64,000 nt of DNA, from the IMG/VR virus record IMGVR_UViG_3300035670_000009, positions 64,001 to 128,000 of that record. The stretch is one strand, 5' to 3'. Both the position numbers and the translations under genes were made by a program. This DNA is from a virus. Its lineage: Duplodnaviria > Caudoviricetes. Below, piece after piece: positions 2,771 to 8,704 of the stretch. The notes below the pieces were generated by a model. That model made no database searches, was not told where the DNA came from, and saw only the letters and a program-made list of their open reading frames with translations. The stretch's first letter is position 1, and the number at the start of each line of letters is the position of its first letter.

Positions 2771-3373
2771 CTAGTATTCAGCGTCGTCGTAGTAGTCGTT
2801 CTCGTCTTCTTCGTCGTCATCAACATCGTCGTAGTCGTTTTGCGAGTTAGACCACAGTTCTTTGTTAGTCGGATACGCGCCGCCGAACAATTGGCTGTGA
2901 AACAGCTGCAGAAATGAAGTCAACCACGCATTCGACGAGTATGCGTGCGACTCTGTCGTTTTTGGCAACTGATCGAGCTGCAGATGCGTCCACGCCGTCT
3001 GCCATTGCTGCGGATGTCCAGAAAACCAACCCAGGTCTTTTTGAGCGGTTTTGTCGTCCGCTGGTTTGACGAGCTTGAAAAAAGACACATGCACAAGCGC
3101 GGCTAACTCGGCGACAGTCGGGTACGCCGGGCCGCGGCGAGGTCGTGCGCCGCGCCGGGTCGCGACAAGCGCTAATTCGTGCTCGAAGTCCGCGCTCATT
3201 TCGTGAAGCTGGCGGCCAAGAGCCGCTGCGTGTACCGGACATTTTACACCGATTTCACTGCGCATCAGTTGCAGTGTATTGAACACCTCGTCGAAGTTCT
3301 GTTTGAGCGTCAAGCCGAAAAGCCTGACGAACTGCGCCTCTTCTTGCGAAAACTTGTCAAATTCAGACGTCAT
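2771..3373 (-). CDS. hypothetical protein with acidic C-terminal tail
   Basis: Start re-assigned to MTSEFDK at 3373 (ATGA overlap with the stop of the upstream gene). Confidence 0.65.
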   Translation of the reverse strand: MTSEFDKFSQEEAQFVRLFGLTLKQNFDEVFNTLQLMRSEIGVKCPVHAAALGRQLHEMSADFEHELALVATRRGARPRRGPAYPTVAELAALVHVSFFKLVKPADDKTAQKDLGWFSGHPQQWQTAWTHLQLDQLPKTTESHAYSSNAWLTSFLQLFHSQLFGGAYPTNKELWSNSQNDYDDVDDDEEDENDYYDDAEY

Positions 3374-4161
3374 GGATTGGTCTCTCGCAAAGACCGACAC
3401 CAAGCCCGTGTCTCTGCTTCGCTGTAGCTCGCAATGCGGCCGAGTGACCAATATAGCAATACGCCTGGGTGCAGCAGATAAGGCGGCGGATTGTACGCGC
3501 CGCCCCAACCGTCATTGACGTAAAACGGCGCATGCGGCCGGTCCATCGAGCCCTTTAAAACCGCGGAAAACAAAAGCAGCTGGCAGGTCCATGTCGCATA
3601 AGCGCCGAACGATAACGACCAAGTTTGGTAGTCAGGCGGAACCAGCAATCGTCGGTAGTACAACTCCCGCGCGAGTTTTGCCGAAAGCGCAAACGCCGCG
3701 GAGTGCGCTGTATACGCTGCAGGTGGTTTGTCCCACATTTCGTGCGGCAAACGGAGCGCCGAAAAGAAATGCCCCATTCGCAAAAAACTTTCGCCGTAAT
3801 AGTAACGATCGGCTACGCCCAGCAGGTCTGCTGTTTCTTCATGACATAACCTGTTGATGCGTTCGTCGCAGCCTTTGCCCAGAAACATTCCGTCGTCCCG
3901 CACGCACACGACCTGCTCAAATTCCACGCCATCGTAAATCGCCTGGTAAAGCCCGGCGTAAAAACGAAAATCCCCCGCAACGTCGCTCTCGTAAAGCAGG
4001 TCGGCGCCACAGTTATCGTACTGACTGCGCGCGCCTTCCGGCACGACCACCAGCGTTTTGCACGGATAGCGACTGGTCCAACGCGCGGCGGCGACAAAGT
4101 CTGCGGCAATTGTCGAACCGCGCGCCGTGTGCGTGATGTAAAGAGTCAGCGGGGCAGACAT
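3370..4161 (-). CDS. hypothetical protein, possibly glycosyltransferase-like
   Basis: 263 aa; VCVRDDG resembles a DxD-type metal motif; translationally coupled to a glycosyltransferase gene. Confidence 0.4.
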   Translation of the reverse strand: MSAPLTLYITHTARGSTIAADFVAAARWTSRYPCKTLVVVPEGARSQYDNCGADLLYESDVAGDFRFYAGLYQAIYDGVEFEQVVCVRDDGMFLGKGCDERINRLCHEETADLLGVADRYYYGESFLRMGHFFSALRLPHEMWDKPPAAYTAHSAAFALSAKLARELYYRRLLVPPDYQTWSLSFGAYATWTCQLLLFSAVLKGSMDRPHAPFYVNDGWGGAYNPPPYLLHPGVLLYWSLGRIASYSEAETRAWCRSLRETNP

Positions 4162-4955
4162 ACCCTGTAAACGTCCTTGATGCGCTGCGGAATCTCAGAC
4201 AACTGCGCGTACTCAGTCGGATTGTCCAGATCGCACAATAGATATCTTTCCAGGTCGGCTGGGTTGTCTAGCCGCTGGTGGACGCCCTCGGGCGAAAACC
4301 GAAACCGCCCGCACCAGACTCGTCCGGCGTTACGCTGGTGACGCCGCAACGCAAGCCGGTAGTCGATCTGATGGATGTGCAGGCAAAGCAGGTCCGGGTG
4401 CGGCGGCTCGTTGGGCGGAACGTTGTAAGCGCCGTGAAAGCCAGCCGCGTAAAACACCGGCAGCCGCGCGACGGCAACCTTTGAGTATTTCGCGCTTTTG
4501 TACCAATGCCGACGGTGGGTCAGGAGCGCCTGCCCCGCCATCAGGTCTGGTTCATTGCGACGGTCGTGAACCACACAGTAGCCAGTAGCCTTGATAAAGG
4601 CAGACTTCGGATAGTCCGCGATCAGCTCGCCCAGCGTCTGATACTCATCGGGCGCAGGCATGAGCAACTCGTCGACCTCCGAAAAGCCAACGGCGCCGAA
4701 GCTCTGGAGCAGAAACTCCTGAAACCGCTCGACAACCCGGGTCAGCCAGTCGTAGTCGAAACTTTCGACGTGCCGCACCGGCACGACGTGAACGCCGTCC
4801 GCTTTGAGCTGCGCAAGATAGTACGACGCGTCGCCCACGCTGTCGTGGTCGAGCACAAACAACTCAGCTTCGGGGGCGTACGTTCGGTAATGCTCAACCC
4901 AAACGGGGAGCAGGTCGATCTCGTCCTGAGCAATCGTGAAAAAGGCGTGGTTCAT
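4146..4955 (-). CDS. GT-A fold glycosyltransferase (GT2-like / GT92-like)
   Basis: Start re-assigned to MNHAFFTIAQDE at 4955; pattern 'LPVWVEHY..LFVLDHDSVG..FSEVDELL..KYSK..GFH' is typical of this family. Confidence 0.7.
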   Translation of the reverse strand: MNHAFFTIAQDEIDLLPVWVEHYRTYAPEAELFVLDHDSVGDASYYLAQLKADGVHVVPVRHVESFDYDWLTRVVERFQEFLLQSFGAVGFSEVDELLMPAPDEYQTLGELIADYPKSAFIKATGYCVVHDRRNEPDLMAGQALLTHRRHWYKSAKYSKVAVARLPVFYAAGFHGAYNVPPNEPPHPDLLCLHIHQIDYRLALRRHQRNAGRVWCGRFRFSPEGVHQRLDNPADLERYLLCDLDNPTEYAQLSEIPQRIKDVYRVCLPR

Positions 4956-4980
4956 GTTTTTGTTGGCAATTAGGGGCGCA

Positions 4981-5140
4981 CAACCCCGCCGGGAGTCGAA
5001 CCCAGTAACAGCGCGTCCAATTGCGCTCGGGGTGCGCGCGACAGGATCCGTCCTAGTCACGACTTTCGGCACACGTATGAGGAAACATACGCCACCGACC
5101 TCGTGGTTATGACCCACTCACGACTTGGGTGCCGAACCGT
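4981..5140 (-). ncRNA. candidate structured RNA including a tRNA-like module without an anticodon arm
   Basis: Minus strand 5033-4983 reads ACCCCG-A-GCGC-AATTGGAC-GCGC-TGTTA-CTGGG-TTCGACT-CCCGG-CGGGGT (acceptor-like stem, D-like arm, T arm). Upstream are the stems TTCGGCAC/GTGCCGAA and CGTATG/CATACG. Confidence 0.5.
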
Positions 5141-5149
5141 CCAACCGGC

Positions 5150-5755
5150 TTAGGCCTCGGCAGGCCTTGATTCAACGCTCACCGGTCGCTGGAAATTGAC
5201 AAAAGCGCGCGCGACTTCCAAACAGGCGCGGGTATCAGCCATGGCGTTATGCGCACCCTCGAGCGGAATACCCAAGTATTCACACACCTCGACAAGGTTG
5301 CATCGGCAATTGAGCGCGCCAGTCGCGTTAAAGAACTGCGCAAGAATGGCCGTGTCGAGCGCAGGATACGTGACGTACTTTCGCCACTCGTCAGCGAAAA
5401 TGAGCTGGTCGTAAATGAAGTCCAAATCGAACGCAAGGTTGTGCCCTGCAGGAATCATCTTTCGACCGCCGCTCATTTGATAGCCACGGTTGAGAAACTC
5501 AGCAAAGATCTGCTGCGCGTCTTCAATTTTCACGCCGCGCGCGCTGTGGTGAATTAAATCGATGCGATTGATCGTGATCGCCTCGGGAGTGACGATGTAC
5601 GTGGGGTGGCGGATTTCCAAGTAAAGCGTATCGTCAGAGGTTCCGCCGCGAATGGGCTGAAAATCGCGGTCTACCACAATCGCTGCTACCGTGAGCAGGC
5701 TATTGTGACTTTCAAGGCCGCCCGTTTCACAGTCCAAAAACAAATACATGGTCAT
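5150..5755 (-). CDS. DEDDh 3'-5' exonuclease (DnaQ/RNase T-like)
   Basis: Motifs LDCETGG, AGHNLAFD, LDT and HNAMAD. Confidence 0.9.
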   Translation of the reverse strand: MTMYLFLDCETGGLESHNSLLTVAAIVVDRDFQPIRGGTSDDTLYLEIRHPTYIVTPEAITINRIDLIHHSARGVKIEDAQQIFAEFLNRGYQMSGGRKMIPAGHNLAFDLDFIYDQLIFADEWRKYVTYPALDTAILAQFFNATGALNCRCNLVEVCEYLGIPLEGAHNAMADTRACLEVARAFVNFQRPVSVESRPAEA

Positions 5756-5788
5756 CCCTGTGTTTGATGCCGCTGATCCTGCGCGTTC

Positions 5789-6151
5789 TCAGCCCAATCG
5801 CGCTAACAACCCACGCAGCGTGTCGGCTGCGGTGTGTTCGTACCATTGCTCGGCAGCGTAGGCCGCCCAGTCAATTGCCTCTCGTTCCGCGGCGGTGAGC
5901 CGCATAGCGTCGCGCTGTTGTGCCACCGTCACCAGCTGTTGCTCCAGCCTGTCGCCAGCCTCCAACAGCAGGTTTTCCTTTTTCTGCAGCCGCTCAATCT
6001 CGTCGGCCGCGTCTCCGCAAAGAATGTCCCCGCTCTCGTAGTTCATTCTCAGAGTCTCAAGCAGGCGTTCCGGCGAAACCTTTGGGAATGGCCGAGAACC
6101 AGCGGATGCAGGAGACGGCTCGGCAGCGTCTCGCGTGTTGTCATCGCTCAT
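5789..6151 (-). CDS. small cassette-like hypothetical protein (paralog of 6180-6461)
   Basis: Start re-assigned to MSDDNT at 6151; shares the 126-bp segment ASAGSRPF...DEIERL and a C-terminal LTxxEREAI..TLxGLL motif with its neighbour. Confidence 0.75.
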   Translation of the reverse strand: MSDDNTRDAAEPSPASAGSRPFPKVSPERLLETLRMNYESGDILCGDAADEIERLQKKENLLLEAGDRLEQQLVTVAQQRDAMRLTAAEREAIDWAAYAAEQWYEHTAADTLRGLLARLG

Positions 6152-6433
6152 AGTTCGCCGCTCCTGATCCTTGTCGTTCTCACTTGGTCCGCTCCAGCAG
6201 GCCGAGCAGCGTCTGCCGAATATGCTGCGCTCGGCCTCCAGGGTCTTGGTGGTAGAGGTAGTCGCCTGCGGCCAACTCAATCGCCTCCCGCTCCTCGTCG
6301 GTGAGCCGCAGCCGCTCAATCTCATCCGCCGCATCCCCGCACAGAATGTCCCCGCTCTCGTAGTTCATTCTCAGAGTCTCAAGCAAGCGTTCCGGCGAAA
6401 CCTTTGGGAATGGCCGAGAACCAGCGGATGCAG
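5986..6433. repeat. 126-bp direct repeat (5986-6111 and 6308-6433)
   Basis: Aligned by eye: 6 mismatches, all synonymous in the minus-strand reading frame. Confidence 0.95.
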
Positions 6434-6461
6434 CAGACATTTCATTAACCTCGTTTGTCAT
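6180..6461 (-). CDS. small cassette-like hypothetical protein
   Basis: 93-aa ORF; paralog of 5789-6151. Confidence 0.75.
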   Translation of the reverse strand: MTNEVNEMSAASAGSRPFPKVSPERLLETLRMNYESGDILCGDAADEIERLRLTDEEREAIELAAGDYLYHQDPGGRAQHIRQTLLGLLERTK

Positions 6462-6497
6462 AACCGCTCCTGTGTTTGATGCCGCTAGTCGTTGACG

Positions 6498-6881
6498 TTA
6501 TCCAGTCCGAATCCATTCCCCGGCAATGTGCAGGTGGCGACACGCCACGAGCATGTCGGCCTCGCATATCTCGGCCGCCTTTCTCCTCGCCATCCTGCAA
6601 CTCCGAAGAATCCTCCACGATGCAATCGGGAACGTCTTAGCGAAATCCTGCATCCGTTTTTCGGCGTCTTGCGAAATGCCGATCTTCCAGTAGGTCTGCT
6701 CTCCGCAGGTTGCCTCAATCCAATACACTTCGCACCCGAGCCTGTCGCAATTGGCAGTCGCTCTGCTCGCAACGTATGCGTCCCAGCAAGCTTCCGGCGA
6801 CCCCAGCCATTTGGCTTGGTTTTCTTCGATACAGATACCCGCATCAAGTGCCGCAAACGCAACCTGTGATCGCGTGCTCAT
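6498..6881 (-). CDS. T5orf172/GIY-YIG-like nuclease domain protein
   Basis: VYWI..WKIGISQDAEKRM..GEW pattern. Confidence 0.65.
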   Translation of the reverse strand: MSTRSQVAFAALDAGICIEENQAKWLGSPEACWDAYVASRATANCDRLGCEVYWIEATCGEQTYWKIGISQDAEKRMQDFAKTFPIASWRILRSCRMARRKAAEICEADMLVACRHLHIAGEWIRTG

Positions 6882-6924
6882 TAGACAACCAACAAATAAA
6901 GCTGGCAGCTTGACGTATTACGTG

Positions 6925-7194
6925 TCATAGTGAGTCATCGCTGCGTTCGCGAATAGACACAAAACGCCCGCCATCTACATCAAACACGATGCCCGGCACG
7001 CCGCCATGCTGCGCGGCCACTGTATTTGCGATTCGCACCAGAGAATCGTAAATCTTTTTGCCGCGCGTATAACCAACAACGGCTACCAGCACACCGTAAG
7101 GGGAAAGACTAAATACGTCGTTTGAGTTGAAATCTCGCGGCGCAACGTCAGCGTGGTCTTCGATATGACCGCCAAAATCAAAATTGTCAGGCAT
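6925..7194 (-). CDS. hypothetical protein
   Basis: 89-aa ORF overlapping the hldE stop, same strand. Confidence 0.55.
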   Translation of the reverse strand: MPDNFDFGGHIEDHADVAPRDFNSNDVFSLSPYGVLVAVVGYTRGKKIYDSLVRIANTVAAQHGGVPGIVFDVDGGRFVSIRERSDDSL

Positions 7195-8704
7195 GTTTCA
7201 GTTTCTCGAGAATCTGCGTGGTGCTCACGTTGTCCACCATGGGACAACGCCAAATTCGGCCTGGAGGGTCGCGATTTATCATCTCTTCAAGGCCGATGAT
7301 TTCCTCCTCTTTGTACTGCGCGCCTTTGACCAATACGTCTGGGACAAACGCGTCGATCATGCCACGCAGCGCAGGTTGTGCGACAAAATCTTCTTCTTCG
7401 AGCGCAACAACTGCGTCCACGCATCCCAAGCTCGCGAGGACCCGGGAGCGCGTTTCAAAATCCTGCACGGGCCGGTTTGGCCCCTTGAGCAGGCGAACAC
7501 TCATGTCGCTGTTTACAGCCACAATGAGGCGCTTACCTTGTTGTTTTGCCTGTTCGAGCAGCTGCAGATGCCCGCGATGTAAAAGGTCAAAACAACCATT
7601 GGCAAGCACAATCGGCTCATTGATCGTGCGCCACGCAGTAGAAAGAGCCACACCTATAGCAAATGGAACAATCTTCGCTTCCGAAGACGTTTCTACCTGC
7701 TTGGCGTACCGCGCCAGAAACGGCGTGGCTGGGTCCAGCTGCGGATACCCTCGCGCCAGGTATTGCGCTGCCGCAGCGTTACCGGCAGCGATCATCAAAT
7801 GCGCACGCGCTGTATCCGGCGGCGCTTTGACCATTGGCGACAACATCAATTCAGCCACAATTCCGGCAAGAAACGCGTCTCCCGCGCCAACACAGTTGGC
7901 AATCGCGGGGAAACACGATTTTGCCGGTGCCTGATAACTCTTAATCGTCTCGTCCGGTTGGCGCACGGCGTACACAGCACCGTTTCTACCGCCGGTAATA
8001 ATTGCAACCTGCGCCTCGGCAGTCTCGAGCACAGCTTGCACAGTCTCGTGACGATCTGGCGACCAGGTTTTGTCGTTCAGCTCCAGATATTCTTTCGCTT
8101 CCGCGGCGTTCATTTTGACGATGTCGGCGCCCTTGTATGCGTTGAGCAAGGCGGGTTTCGCGCTAACCACCGACAACACGCCATAGTAGCGCGCGGCTTC
8201 GATAATCTTTTGCCCGTAAAACTGGCAATACCCTTTGCCGTAGTCGGCGATAACCAGCGCATTCGCCAACGGAATATGCTGCATATACCGCTCGATGTTG
8301 AAATCGCGCGAAGCGTGTGCAACATACTGATCGGACGTTTCTTCTTCGTCGTAGCGAAATGCGACAATGCCGTGATTATTGACAAACCGCATTTTGGCGG
8401 GCGTAACAAACAGCCCGCTGAATGTCACGTTTTTACAAGACAGGCCAGATTCGTGAAGCAACGCATGCACGGTCTGGCCCGGCGTATCGTCGCCCAGTCG
8501 GCTCATGAGCTTGATTCGCATATTCAGACTGCGCAACAACGCGGCCACCAATCCGGCGCCGCCAAGCGACGCTTGCCGGTCGTCTCCCTTTCCAGTGGCA
8601 ATGACCGCGGCACCTTCAGGATTCGCGTAGCGCGGCCCCGCTTGAATCCAAAGATCAAGCAACAGGTCGCCTAAAACGAGCACTTTCGGTCCGCGGTATC
8701 CCAT
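7187..8704 (-). CDS. hldE: bifunctional heptose-7-phosphate kinase / heptose-1-phosphate adenylyltransferase
   Basis: N-terminal PfkB domain (VLVLGDLLLD, GGAGLVA, GAGDAF); C-terminal cytidylyltransferase-like domain (NGCFDLLHRGH, AVNSDMSVRLLKGPNRP, LVKG, STT). Confidence 0.93.
   Translation of the reverse strand: MGYRGPKVLVLGDLLLDLWIQAGPRYANPEGAAVIATGKGDDRQASLGGAGLVAALLRSLNMRIKLMSRLGDDTPGQTVHALLHESGLSCKNVTFSGLFVTPAKMRFVNNHGIVAFRYDEEETSDQYVAHASRDFNIERYMQHIPLANALVIADYGKGYCQFYGQKIIEAARYYGVLSVVSAKPALLNAYKGADIVKMNAAEAKEYLELNDKTWSPDRHETVQAVLETAEAQVAIITGGRNGAVYAVRQPDETIKSYQAPAKSCFPAIANCVGAGDAFLAGIVAELMLSPMVKAPPDTARAHLMIAAGNAAAAQYLARGYPQLDPATPFLARYAKQVETSSEAKIVPFAIGVALSTAWRTINEPIVLANGCFDLLHRGHLQLLEQAKQQGKRLIVAVNSDMSVRLLKGPNRPVQDFETRSRVLASLGCVDAVVALEEEDFVAQPALRGMIDAFVPDVLVKGAQYKEEEIIGLEEMINRDPPGRIWRCPMVDNVSTTQILEKLKHA

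Follow-up and report, generated by a model that had tools for sequence, protein, structure and literature searches.

The DNA analysed here, referred to as the window, is a 64,000-nt stretch (positions 64,001 to 128,000) of the IMG/VR record IMGVR_UViG_3300035670_000009, which belongs to a tailed phage (Caudoviricetes) with a complete 204-kb genome carrying direct terminal repeats. On the minus strand of the window, between positions 6881 and 5150, four genes are separated by three elements that resemble the attC sites of integron cassettes. In the order of this strand they are gene A (6881-6498, 127 aa), which is weakly T5orf172-like, site 1 (6415-6503, 89 nt), gene B (6180-6461, 93 aa), site 2 (6093-6182, 90 nt), gene C (P0001; 5789-6151, 120 aa), site 3 (5735-5791) and, flanking the array, the gene for a DEDDh 3'-5' exonuclease (5150-5755; RNase_T, E-value 2.8e-11; phrog_192). 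We interpret the segment 5735-6503 as probably (with a probability of roughly 0.7) a small, partly decayed cassette array of the integron type, carried by a phage without a recombinase of its own and using an attC family that would be native to bacteria of the order Pirellulales. A preliminary description of the locus had proposed an integron-like array with attC architecture, and the boxes that it named, GGATAAC (6503-6497), TGAGAAC (6182-6176 and 5791-5785) and GTTGTCT (6889-6883), are all present on the minus strand at these positions.

Site 1, a decayed hairpin delineated with a covariance model and by inspection of its boxes, consists of R'' GGATAAC, the spacer GTCAA, L'' CGACTAGCGG, a 45-nt loop, L' CTGCTGCATCC, the spacer GCTG and R' GTTCTCG. 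Its L''-like box is degenerate, reading CGACTAG where sites 2 and 3 have GGATCAG 5 nt after R'', and 6 of the 10 positions of its L stem pair when aligned by eye in a fixed register. Site 2, an intact hairpin delineated with the same model and by folding, consists of R'' TGAGAAC, the spacer GACAA, L'' GGATCAGGAG, a 46-nt loop, L' CTCCTG(C)ATCC, the spacer GCTG and R' GTTCTCG, with all 10 positions of the L stem paired. The closing arm CTGCATCC-GCTG-GTTCTCG is common to site 1 (6503-6415) and site 2 (6182-6093). Site 3 is a truncated half-site composed of R'' TGAGAAC (5791-5785), the spacer GCGCA, L'' GGATCAGCGG (5779-5770) and, after this box, the initial portion of an 'MTNE-type' loop; it has only the AAC half, with neither L' nor R'. 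The remnant of its loop is the region of the ribosome-binding site (RBS) and ATG of the exonuclease gene, and its motif AGCGGCATCAAACACAGG is shared with site 1 only.

Genes B and C start within the hairpins. The loop of site 1 contains the RBS and ATG of gene B (leader MTNEVNEMSAASAGS), and that of site 2 contains the ATG of gene C (leader MSDDNTRDAAEPSPASAGS), whose RBS, AGGAG, lies within L''. Both genes are translated across L' to R' (..SAASAGSR.. in B, ..SPASAGSR.. in C), in agreement with the initial view of the peptide ASAGS as the translated right arm of a site whose loop holds the ATG of the downstream gene. The TGA stop of gene B forms the first bases of R'' of site 2, and the TGA stop of gene C lies within R'' of site 3. 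The start of each of these cassettes, GTTCTCG, is complementary to its end, TGAGAAC, at 6 of 7 positions (3 of the 4 variable bases), as had been predicted for all three genes. The prediction did not hold for gene A, for which GTTGTCT and GGATAAC agree at 1 of the 4 variable positions. Because gene A also lacks an attC-type site on its 5' side and has no homologues near other phage arrays, we conclude from sequence comparison that it is not a cassette. Its match to T5orf172 (PF10544; 14.4 bits, E-value 0.055) is below the cut-off of 20 and it has no PHROG match; a role for gene A as a mobility enzyme was rejected on the same sub-threshold match and lack of relatives near arrays.

Genes B and C are paralogues with 72% identity over 71 aa, and the intergenic 34-mers around them are alike. 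They share a direct repeat of 131 nt (6308-6438 in gene B, 5986-6116 in gene C; 95% identical), which contains L', R' and the common N-terminal domain and whose first 19 nt are the L'/R' arm of sites 1 and 2. The approximately 6 differing positions are all synonymous, leaving the 37-40 encoded residues identical, which indicates that the shared domain either is under strong purifying selection or has recently undergone conversion. Gene B, which ends in the C-terminal module LTDEEREAIE..LLERTK, has no Pfam or PHROG match.

Covariance scoring and related phage arrays

We built a covariance model, R1, from 70 long-loop sites of other phages, with the window sites excluded. R1 matched site 2 with 90.7 bits (E-value 5e-23) and site 1 over its full length with 58.5 bits (E-value 6e-14), with two L-stem pairs broken in the model alignment, and it matched the left half only of site 3 with 14 bits (E-value 0.15). 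Because a model derived from the sites of other phages alone gives these scores, a chance origin of the boxes in the window is excluded. The whole 204-kb genome, for which such a search had been proposed, contains no R1 match beyond these three. Two full-length matches 321 nt apart and a half-site, in a genome without an integrase, constitute a cluster of attC sites lacking an integron integrase (CALIN). As single-stranded DNA, site 2 folds into the proposed hairpin (-17.9 kcal/mol; z of -1.7 against shuffled sequences, which is weak by itself), and site 1 folds no better than its shuffles (z of +0.9). The lengths of the imperfect palindromes of 89-90 bp noted at the outset were thus correct (89 and 90 nt), and the predicted folding applies to site 2 only.

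A blastn search of the window region against the phage collection gave no match, and loose 14-base patterns run against the viral and bacterial collections returned mostly single chance matches, which were of use only after structural filtering. Related arrays were reached via a homologue of gene C with the same leader, in the viral locus L001 (4001-4420). This locus contains 13 sites between unrelated small genes, each with the layout nnnnAAC, 5 nt, CGATCAGCGG, loop, CCGCTG(C)ATCG, 4 nt and GTTnnnn. With a detector based on structure only, in which the L sequence was free and at least 9 of 10 L pairs were required, we identified 277 sites in viral loci totalling 2.0 Mb, compared to 3 on the reversed sequences. 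Two or more sites were present in 58 viral loci, and the biggest arrays had 14 and 15 sites. The commonest cargo is the family of genes B and C, whose 56 open reading frames (ORFs), spread over 28 loci, all lie on the sense strand. In 34-97 kb phages (L260, L266, L285 and L300) the arrays lie between genes for a DnaN-like clamp and a DUF1376 protein upstream and a RusA resolvase gene downstream, a position comparable to the nin region of phage lambda.

The sites of these phages share the features expected of attC. AAC and GTT are invariant in all 70 aligned sites, the extrahelical base of the 10-bp L stem is C in 199 of 210 sites, and the two spacers are 5 and 4 nt long. Compensatory double changes occur at 8 of the 12 pairs of the L stem (159 cells, compared to 46 in shuffles; 0/500), which is the covariation among relatives on which the attC assignment had been said to depend, and the loop ends prolong the stem with further covarying pairs. 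Complementary cassette ends are a signature of integron cassettes, in which the crossover takes place inside the core. In 115 of 149 phage cassettes the 4 bases after GTT exactly complement the 4 bases before the next AAC, a number that none of 20,000 permutations reached (mean 25.6, maximum 45); the two arms within one site match at chance level only (37/210). Together with the R1 scores and the IntI-linked relatives in Pirellulales described below, the covarying stems and complementary ends uphold the reading of the window sites as attC architecture.

The exchange of cassettes is suggested by 13 pairs of near-identical bodies (85-100%) that occur in differing contexts. Homology stops right after nnnnAAC in 12 of these pairs and right before GTTnnnn in 9. 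In some pairs (L261/L317 and L035/L052) there is zero homology on the connector side of GTT, a pattern for which general recombination gives no explanation. That the sites bound exchangeable gene units, as first proposed, is therefore supported by the end complementarity and the sharp homology breaks in related loci, not by the window alone; the accumulation and shuffling of modules would likewise be a property of the family, and the array in the window is a remnant.

Sequencing runs of metagenomes were used through their assembled contigs only, leaving aside uncovered parts and depth peaks. Many contigs match exactly positions 6094-6182 and diverge on either side. In an approximately 98% identical strain from another study (run X5), the 497 nt of 5779-6275 are replaced by 481 other letters; one edge of this segment is at the border of the spacer and L'' of site 3, and the other is inside gene B at the LTDEEREAI motif. 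One contig of 7x depth (run X1; window 6095|5789) joins GTTCT directly to AGAAC, i.e., two connectors with no body between them, and no such body-less junction occurs in 152 site pairs of the fetched viral loci.

Inverted sites and kinship with bacterial integrons

We compared the orientation of the sites with that of the genes, judging the coding strand by the periodicity of GC content at third codon positions since the longest open frame is uninformative in this high-GC DNA. The strand on which the detector geometry is found is the coding strand in 56 of 63 decidable phage cassettes, as it is in the window, whereas the cassette ORFs of the IntI-linked bacterial arrays run on the other strand (6/7 and 7/8). 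In the bacterial loci L142 and L420 the detector geometry lies on the intI strand, which is the canonical bottom strand. The canonical arrangement, with a site 3' of its cassette ORF and a bottom strand antisense to the gene, was thus not found in the phages. Since the sites are inverted relative to canonical cassettes, the gene to which a hairpin most likely belongs is the one whose start it contains, and not the one that terminates at its edge. In 52 of 149 phage cassettes the loop provides an RBS and an ATG, and the frame crosses L'-R' before it stops at the next box; 51 of the 52 are in one frame relative to GTT, and the stops lie at fixed offsets inside or just before the next box. Long loops are mostly 45-46 nt whether coding or not, and the cassette bodies are short (median 283 nt).

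The closest bacterial relatives of these sites were found in a metagenome-assembled genome (MAG) labelled Pirellulales, G084. It contains at least 27 R1 matches, distributed over at least 10 contigs of which some are 40-54 kb long. G084 also has two genes for IntI, which score 435 and 388 bits (cut-off 265); the distance from one of these genes to a site is about 1 kb, and one of the arrays of G084 holds a short site of the phage type. R1 matches are present in 8 of 61 sampled genomes of the order Pirellulales. The chromosomal integron sites of G084 share with the phage sites the AAC/GTT core, the 5- and 4-nt spacers, the 10-bp L stem with its bulged C, the L box CGATCAGCGG/CCGCTGCATCG, a loop stem (CTCGCGACC...ATCGCGAGT in G084, CCCGCGACC...ATCGCGGGT in phages), a near-equal loop length (44-45 nt, compared to mostly 45-46 nt) and a GTTC-type R'. 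The geometry of L stem, bulged base and spacers is identical in IntI-linked bacterial arrays, where 9 of 10 and 13 of 16 cassettes have complementary ends. R' begins with GTTC in 18 of 19 IntI-linked Pirellulales sites, the same departure from the consensus as in the phages. The phage sites differ from those of Pirellulales by being inverted to the genes, by having an RBS, ATG and leader in many loops, by their R-box words (GTTCTCA/CTGT/ATGC, as opposed to GTTCGGC) and by R boxes that embed the stop of the preceding gene; the phage cassettes are also shorter and have no IntI in cis.

Two MAGs of the family Steroidobacteraceae encode true IntI proteins (453-468 bits, cut-off 265) beside canonical GCCTAAC...GTTAGGC arrays. 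Despite the different phylum, these arrays (L223, L142) have the L box CGATCAGCGG/CCGCTGCATCG in common with the sites of Pirellulales and of the phages. The Steroidobacteraceae sites have loops of 82-86 nt and an R' of the GTTAGGC type, with canonical GTTA. An earlier notion that the site family is phage-specific, based on an exact short-site pattern present in 72 viral stretches and 2 bacterial contigs, was withdrawn at the level of the family once R1 arrays were found in Pirellulales and holds for the exact short pattern only.

The search for a recombinase in the 204-kb genome was negative for PF00589 and TIGR02249, i.e., for tyrosine recombinases and for IntI, and the combination of intI, adjacent attI and array that defines a complete integron is absent. 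This agrees with the suggestion that, in the absence of an own integrase, the IntI of a host is the natural candidate. Among 20 array-bearing phage records none encodes a true IntI (TIGR02249). A family of 288-aa Xer-like tyrosine recombinases is present in 25 of 48 array-bearing records, including 10 of the 13 that are at least 90% complete. Across phages of 34-97 kb its members share 25-56% identity, and the gene adjoins the array in two records (G023 and G024). They score far below the Xer and IntI thresholds and have no IntI signature; among near-complete records found through this recombinase, only 5 of 11 have sites, and the distance between its gene and the array ranges from 1 to 45 kb. 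The family (e.g., L254:1171-2037 and L251:1444-2310; 288 viral stretches) is widespread in the same metagenomes, enriched in phages with arrays and not obligately linked to them, and it may simply serve a phage clade as its integrase for lysogeny. We favour host IntI acting in trans as the likely enzyme for two reasons: the likely hosts possess a cognate IntI for this site family, and IntI1 has recombined attC sites of virulent phages (Qi et al., 2023).

The window block and competing explanations

The locus L005 belongs to a close relative of the 204-kb phage (exonuclease 84% identical). In L005 an 88-aa gene is followed directly by the exonuclease gene, and the 1.1-kb block of genes A, B and C is absent, which makes this block an indel. 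Homology to L005 resumes at the ATG of the exonuclease gene. The left edge of the block has no site, and on the right the block ends with half a site of the 'MTNE-type', the left half, which is fused to the start of the exonuclease gene. From these edges the block looks like a piece of a donor array that was acquired by recombination of a non-site-specific kind and is now decaying; its acquisition was probably secondary, with site 2 as the only site left intact. The 88-aa gene of L005 ends in GCCTAAC (L005:4960-5000), which fits the canonical RYYYAAC box, lies 14 nt ahead of the ATG of the exonuclease gene and has no hairpin. This box may mark a place where insertion once occurred or could occur, or it may be there by coincidence. 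Elsewhere in this part of the window, a 505-aa fusion of a PfkB-type kinase and a cytidylyltransferase, resembling the heptose kinase/adenylyltransferase HldE (7187-8704, minus strand), has as neighbours a weakly GT2-like gene (4146-5117) and a gene for a 263-aa protein of no assigned function (3370-4161), both on the minus strand. By domain content these genes appear to form a sugar-nucleotide pathway, here in a phage of 204 kb, and L005 carries the same set.

On the interpretation of the window as an integron-type array, each complete site runs from nnnnAAC and 5 nt through a 10-bp L stem, in which one C is bulged, and its loop to 4 nt and GTTnnnn. The family would be native to the chromosomal integrons of Pirellulales (Planctomycetota) and would have reached many phages, which presumably infect those hosts. 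The phage sites are inverted, such that the integron 'bottom' strand is the coding strand and the hairpin lies at the 5' end of the gene, and in about a third of the cassettes the loop supplies an RBS, an ATG and approximately 15 leader codons, with L', spacer and R' translated in a fixed frame (..SAASxGS..). Cassettes would be swapped by site-specific recombination within the AAC/GTT core, for which the complementary ends and sharp homology breaks are indirect evidence. Most likely, the integrase of a host integron would act on the folded single strand during infection, the alternative enzyme being the 288-aa Xer-like recombinase of most array-bearing phages.

Several observations weigh against this interpretation. 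Site 1 has two broken pairs and no folding advantage and site 3 is only a half, such that the array in the window may be inert; the 204-kb phage and its close relative both lack a tyrosine recombinase. The R boxes fall outside the canonical consensus RYYYAAC/GTTRRRY, with R' starting with GTTC in 177 of 210 phage sites as well as in the window (GTTCTCG). The figure of 98.8% paired positions is partly circular, as the detector demanded L pairing, although the variant stems are not. A single canonical crossover predicts that each body is tied to one connector (spacer, hairpin, spacer); the linkage is unclean on both sides, the connectors differing upstream in 9 of the 13 body pairs and downstream in 12, which is not as predicted. 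Binning could also have placed phage contigs into 'bacterial' MAGs, as in the unclassified MAG G085, whose contigs L429 and L431 (2-3 kb) have phage-type arrays with TGAGAAC boxes and ATG codons in loops and are probably phage fragments binned with a bacterium. The host of the phages is presumed from the kinship of their sites to Pirellulales, and the case as a whole rests on comparative patterns, from which recombination is inferred.

Among the other explanations, the one least in keeping with the data is that the boxes are a by-product of the tandem duplication of one small gene, by which genes B and C would share their ends, intergenic DNA and starts by descent. The 131-nt repeat, 95% identical and containing L' and R' of both sites, the 72% identity over 71 aa and the similar intergenic 34-mers are what such an event would leave behind, but in other phages the same hairpins stand beside dozens of unrelated genes, a model derived from sites outside the window gives 58-91 bits for the two longer sites, the stems co-vary and the ends are complementary. 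Duplication as the sole cause was rejected when L001 was found to have the same sites between unrelated genes; it accounts for the likeness of the bodies, not for the sites. We regard it as very improbable, though slightly less so, that the hairpins act mainly as RNA, in translational control, processing or termination, with no role in DNA recombination. A hairpin on the sense strand with covarying stems, and a Shine-Dalgarno sequence (AGGAG) in L'' of site 2 that it would sequester, are consistent with this; it leaves unexplained the complementary ends, the sharp homology breaks and the kinship to attC arrays that are linked to IntI and carry their genes on the opposite strand. A role at the RNA level may be an added function rather than a rival one.

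The two remaining explanations concern what moves the cassettes. The hairpins could be linkers for short-homology general recombination between co-infecting phages, comparable to the stem-loop cassettes of T4-type phages, with the integron features as relics of a host integron captured long ago and with no site-specific enzyme acting on them today. This would suit a phage without a recombinase, the swapping of connectors independently of bodies on both sides, the edge of the X5 segment inside the conserved coding motif LTDEEREAI, and a conserved L'-spacer-GTT arm of about 20 nt that could support such crossovers. We consider it unlikely, as general recombination neither makes nor keeps exact complementarity of starts and ends over many 4-nt words, some pairs (L261/L317, L035/L052) lack any homology on the connector side, and homology breaks off precisely at the AAC and GTT edges, also where the adjacent spacers are unlike. 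Somewhat less doubtful, though still improbable, is a self-contained phage 'integron' in which the 288-aa recombinase, not host IntI, recombines the sites, the enzyme having been lost from the present phage. The frequency of this enzyme in array-bearing records (25/48, and 10/13 of those at least 90% complete), its position beside the array in G023 and G024, its diversity across phages (25-56% identity, 34-97 kb) and the lack of any phage record with a true IntI speak for it; the presence of sites in only 5 of 11 near-complete records that bear it, the distances of 1 to 45 kb, its scores far below the Xer and IntI thresholds, the missing IntI signature, its possible nature as a lysogeny integrase and the cognate IntI that the site family already has in bacteria speak against it.

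Beyond the integron-type array in the window itself, a wider proposal may be put forward only tentatively, the odds being somewhat against it: phages of Planctomycetota could run a phage-adapted integron, in which the reversed attC is a portable translation-start module, host IntI mediates phage-phage and phage-host traffic of cassettes and, unlike in classical integrons, both core boxes serve as crossover points. The independent swapping of connectors and bodies would mean such a use of both boxes.

Known systems and meaning

Promoter-early stem-loop (PeSL) cassettes of T4-type phages consist of small accessory genes between conserved stem-loops, which are shuffling junctions. PeSLs carry promoters and are thought to work by homologous recombination. 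The sites described here differ from them by an integron-type core, complementary cassette ends and IntI-linked bacterial relatives. Clusters of attC sites without an integrase have already been published for phages (Qi et al., 2023, Front Microbiol, PMC9892861). In that report, 5 of 6 tested attC sites from virulent phages recombined with IntI1, 17 phage CALINs of at least 2 sites are given, and cassettes of the same direction are typical, with divergent sites in one phage. Like those CALINs, the present arrays consist of at least 2 attC-type sites in phages without IntI. Systematic inversion, gene starts within sites and long homogeneous arrays are not described in section 3.4 of that report (Qi et al., 2023); relative to its CALINs, the present arrays belong to one site family, reach 15 sites and extend over dozens of contigs. 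The features that appear to be new are the inversion of the sites, their use as translation-start modules, arrays of this size and homogeneity, and the link to Pirellulales integrons.

For the window itself the meaning is more modest, as it holds a decaying remnant of this array system. Integrons are regarded as bacterial devices, and attC clusters in phages have so far been sparse finds. The occurrence of one attC family in long arrays of dozens of phages and in the integrons of their likely hosts points to a direct route for cassette traffic. A recombination hairpin that also provides a gene with its RBS, its start codon and an N-terminal leader makes a DNA signal overlap with coding sequence in an unusual way, and this overlap predicts constraints on both. 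If the proposed traffic is real, phages would gain access to the cassette reservoir of their hosts, and the hosts to that of the phages.

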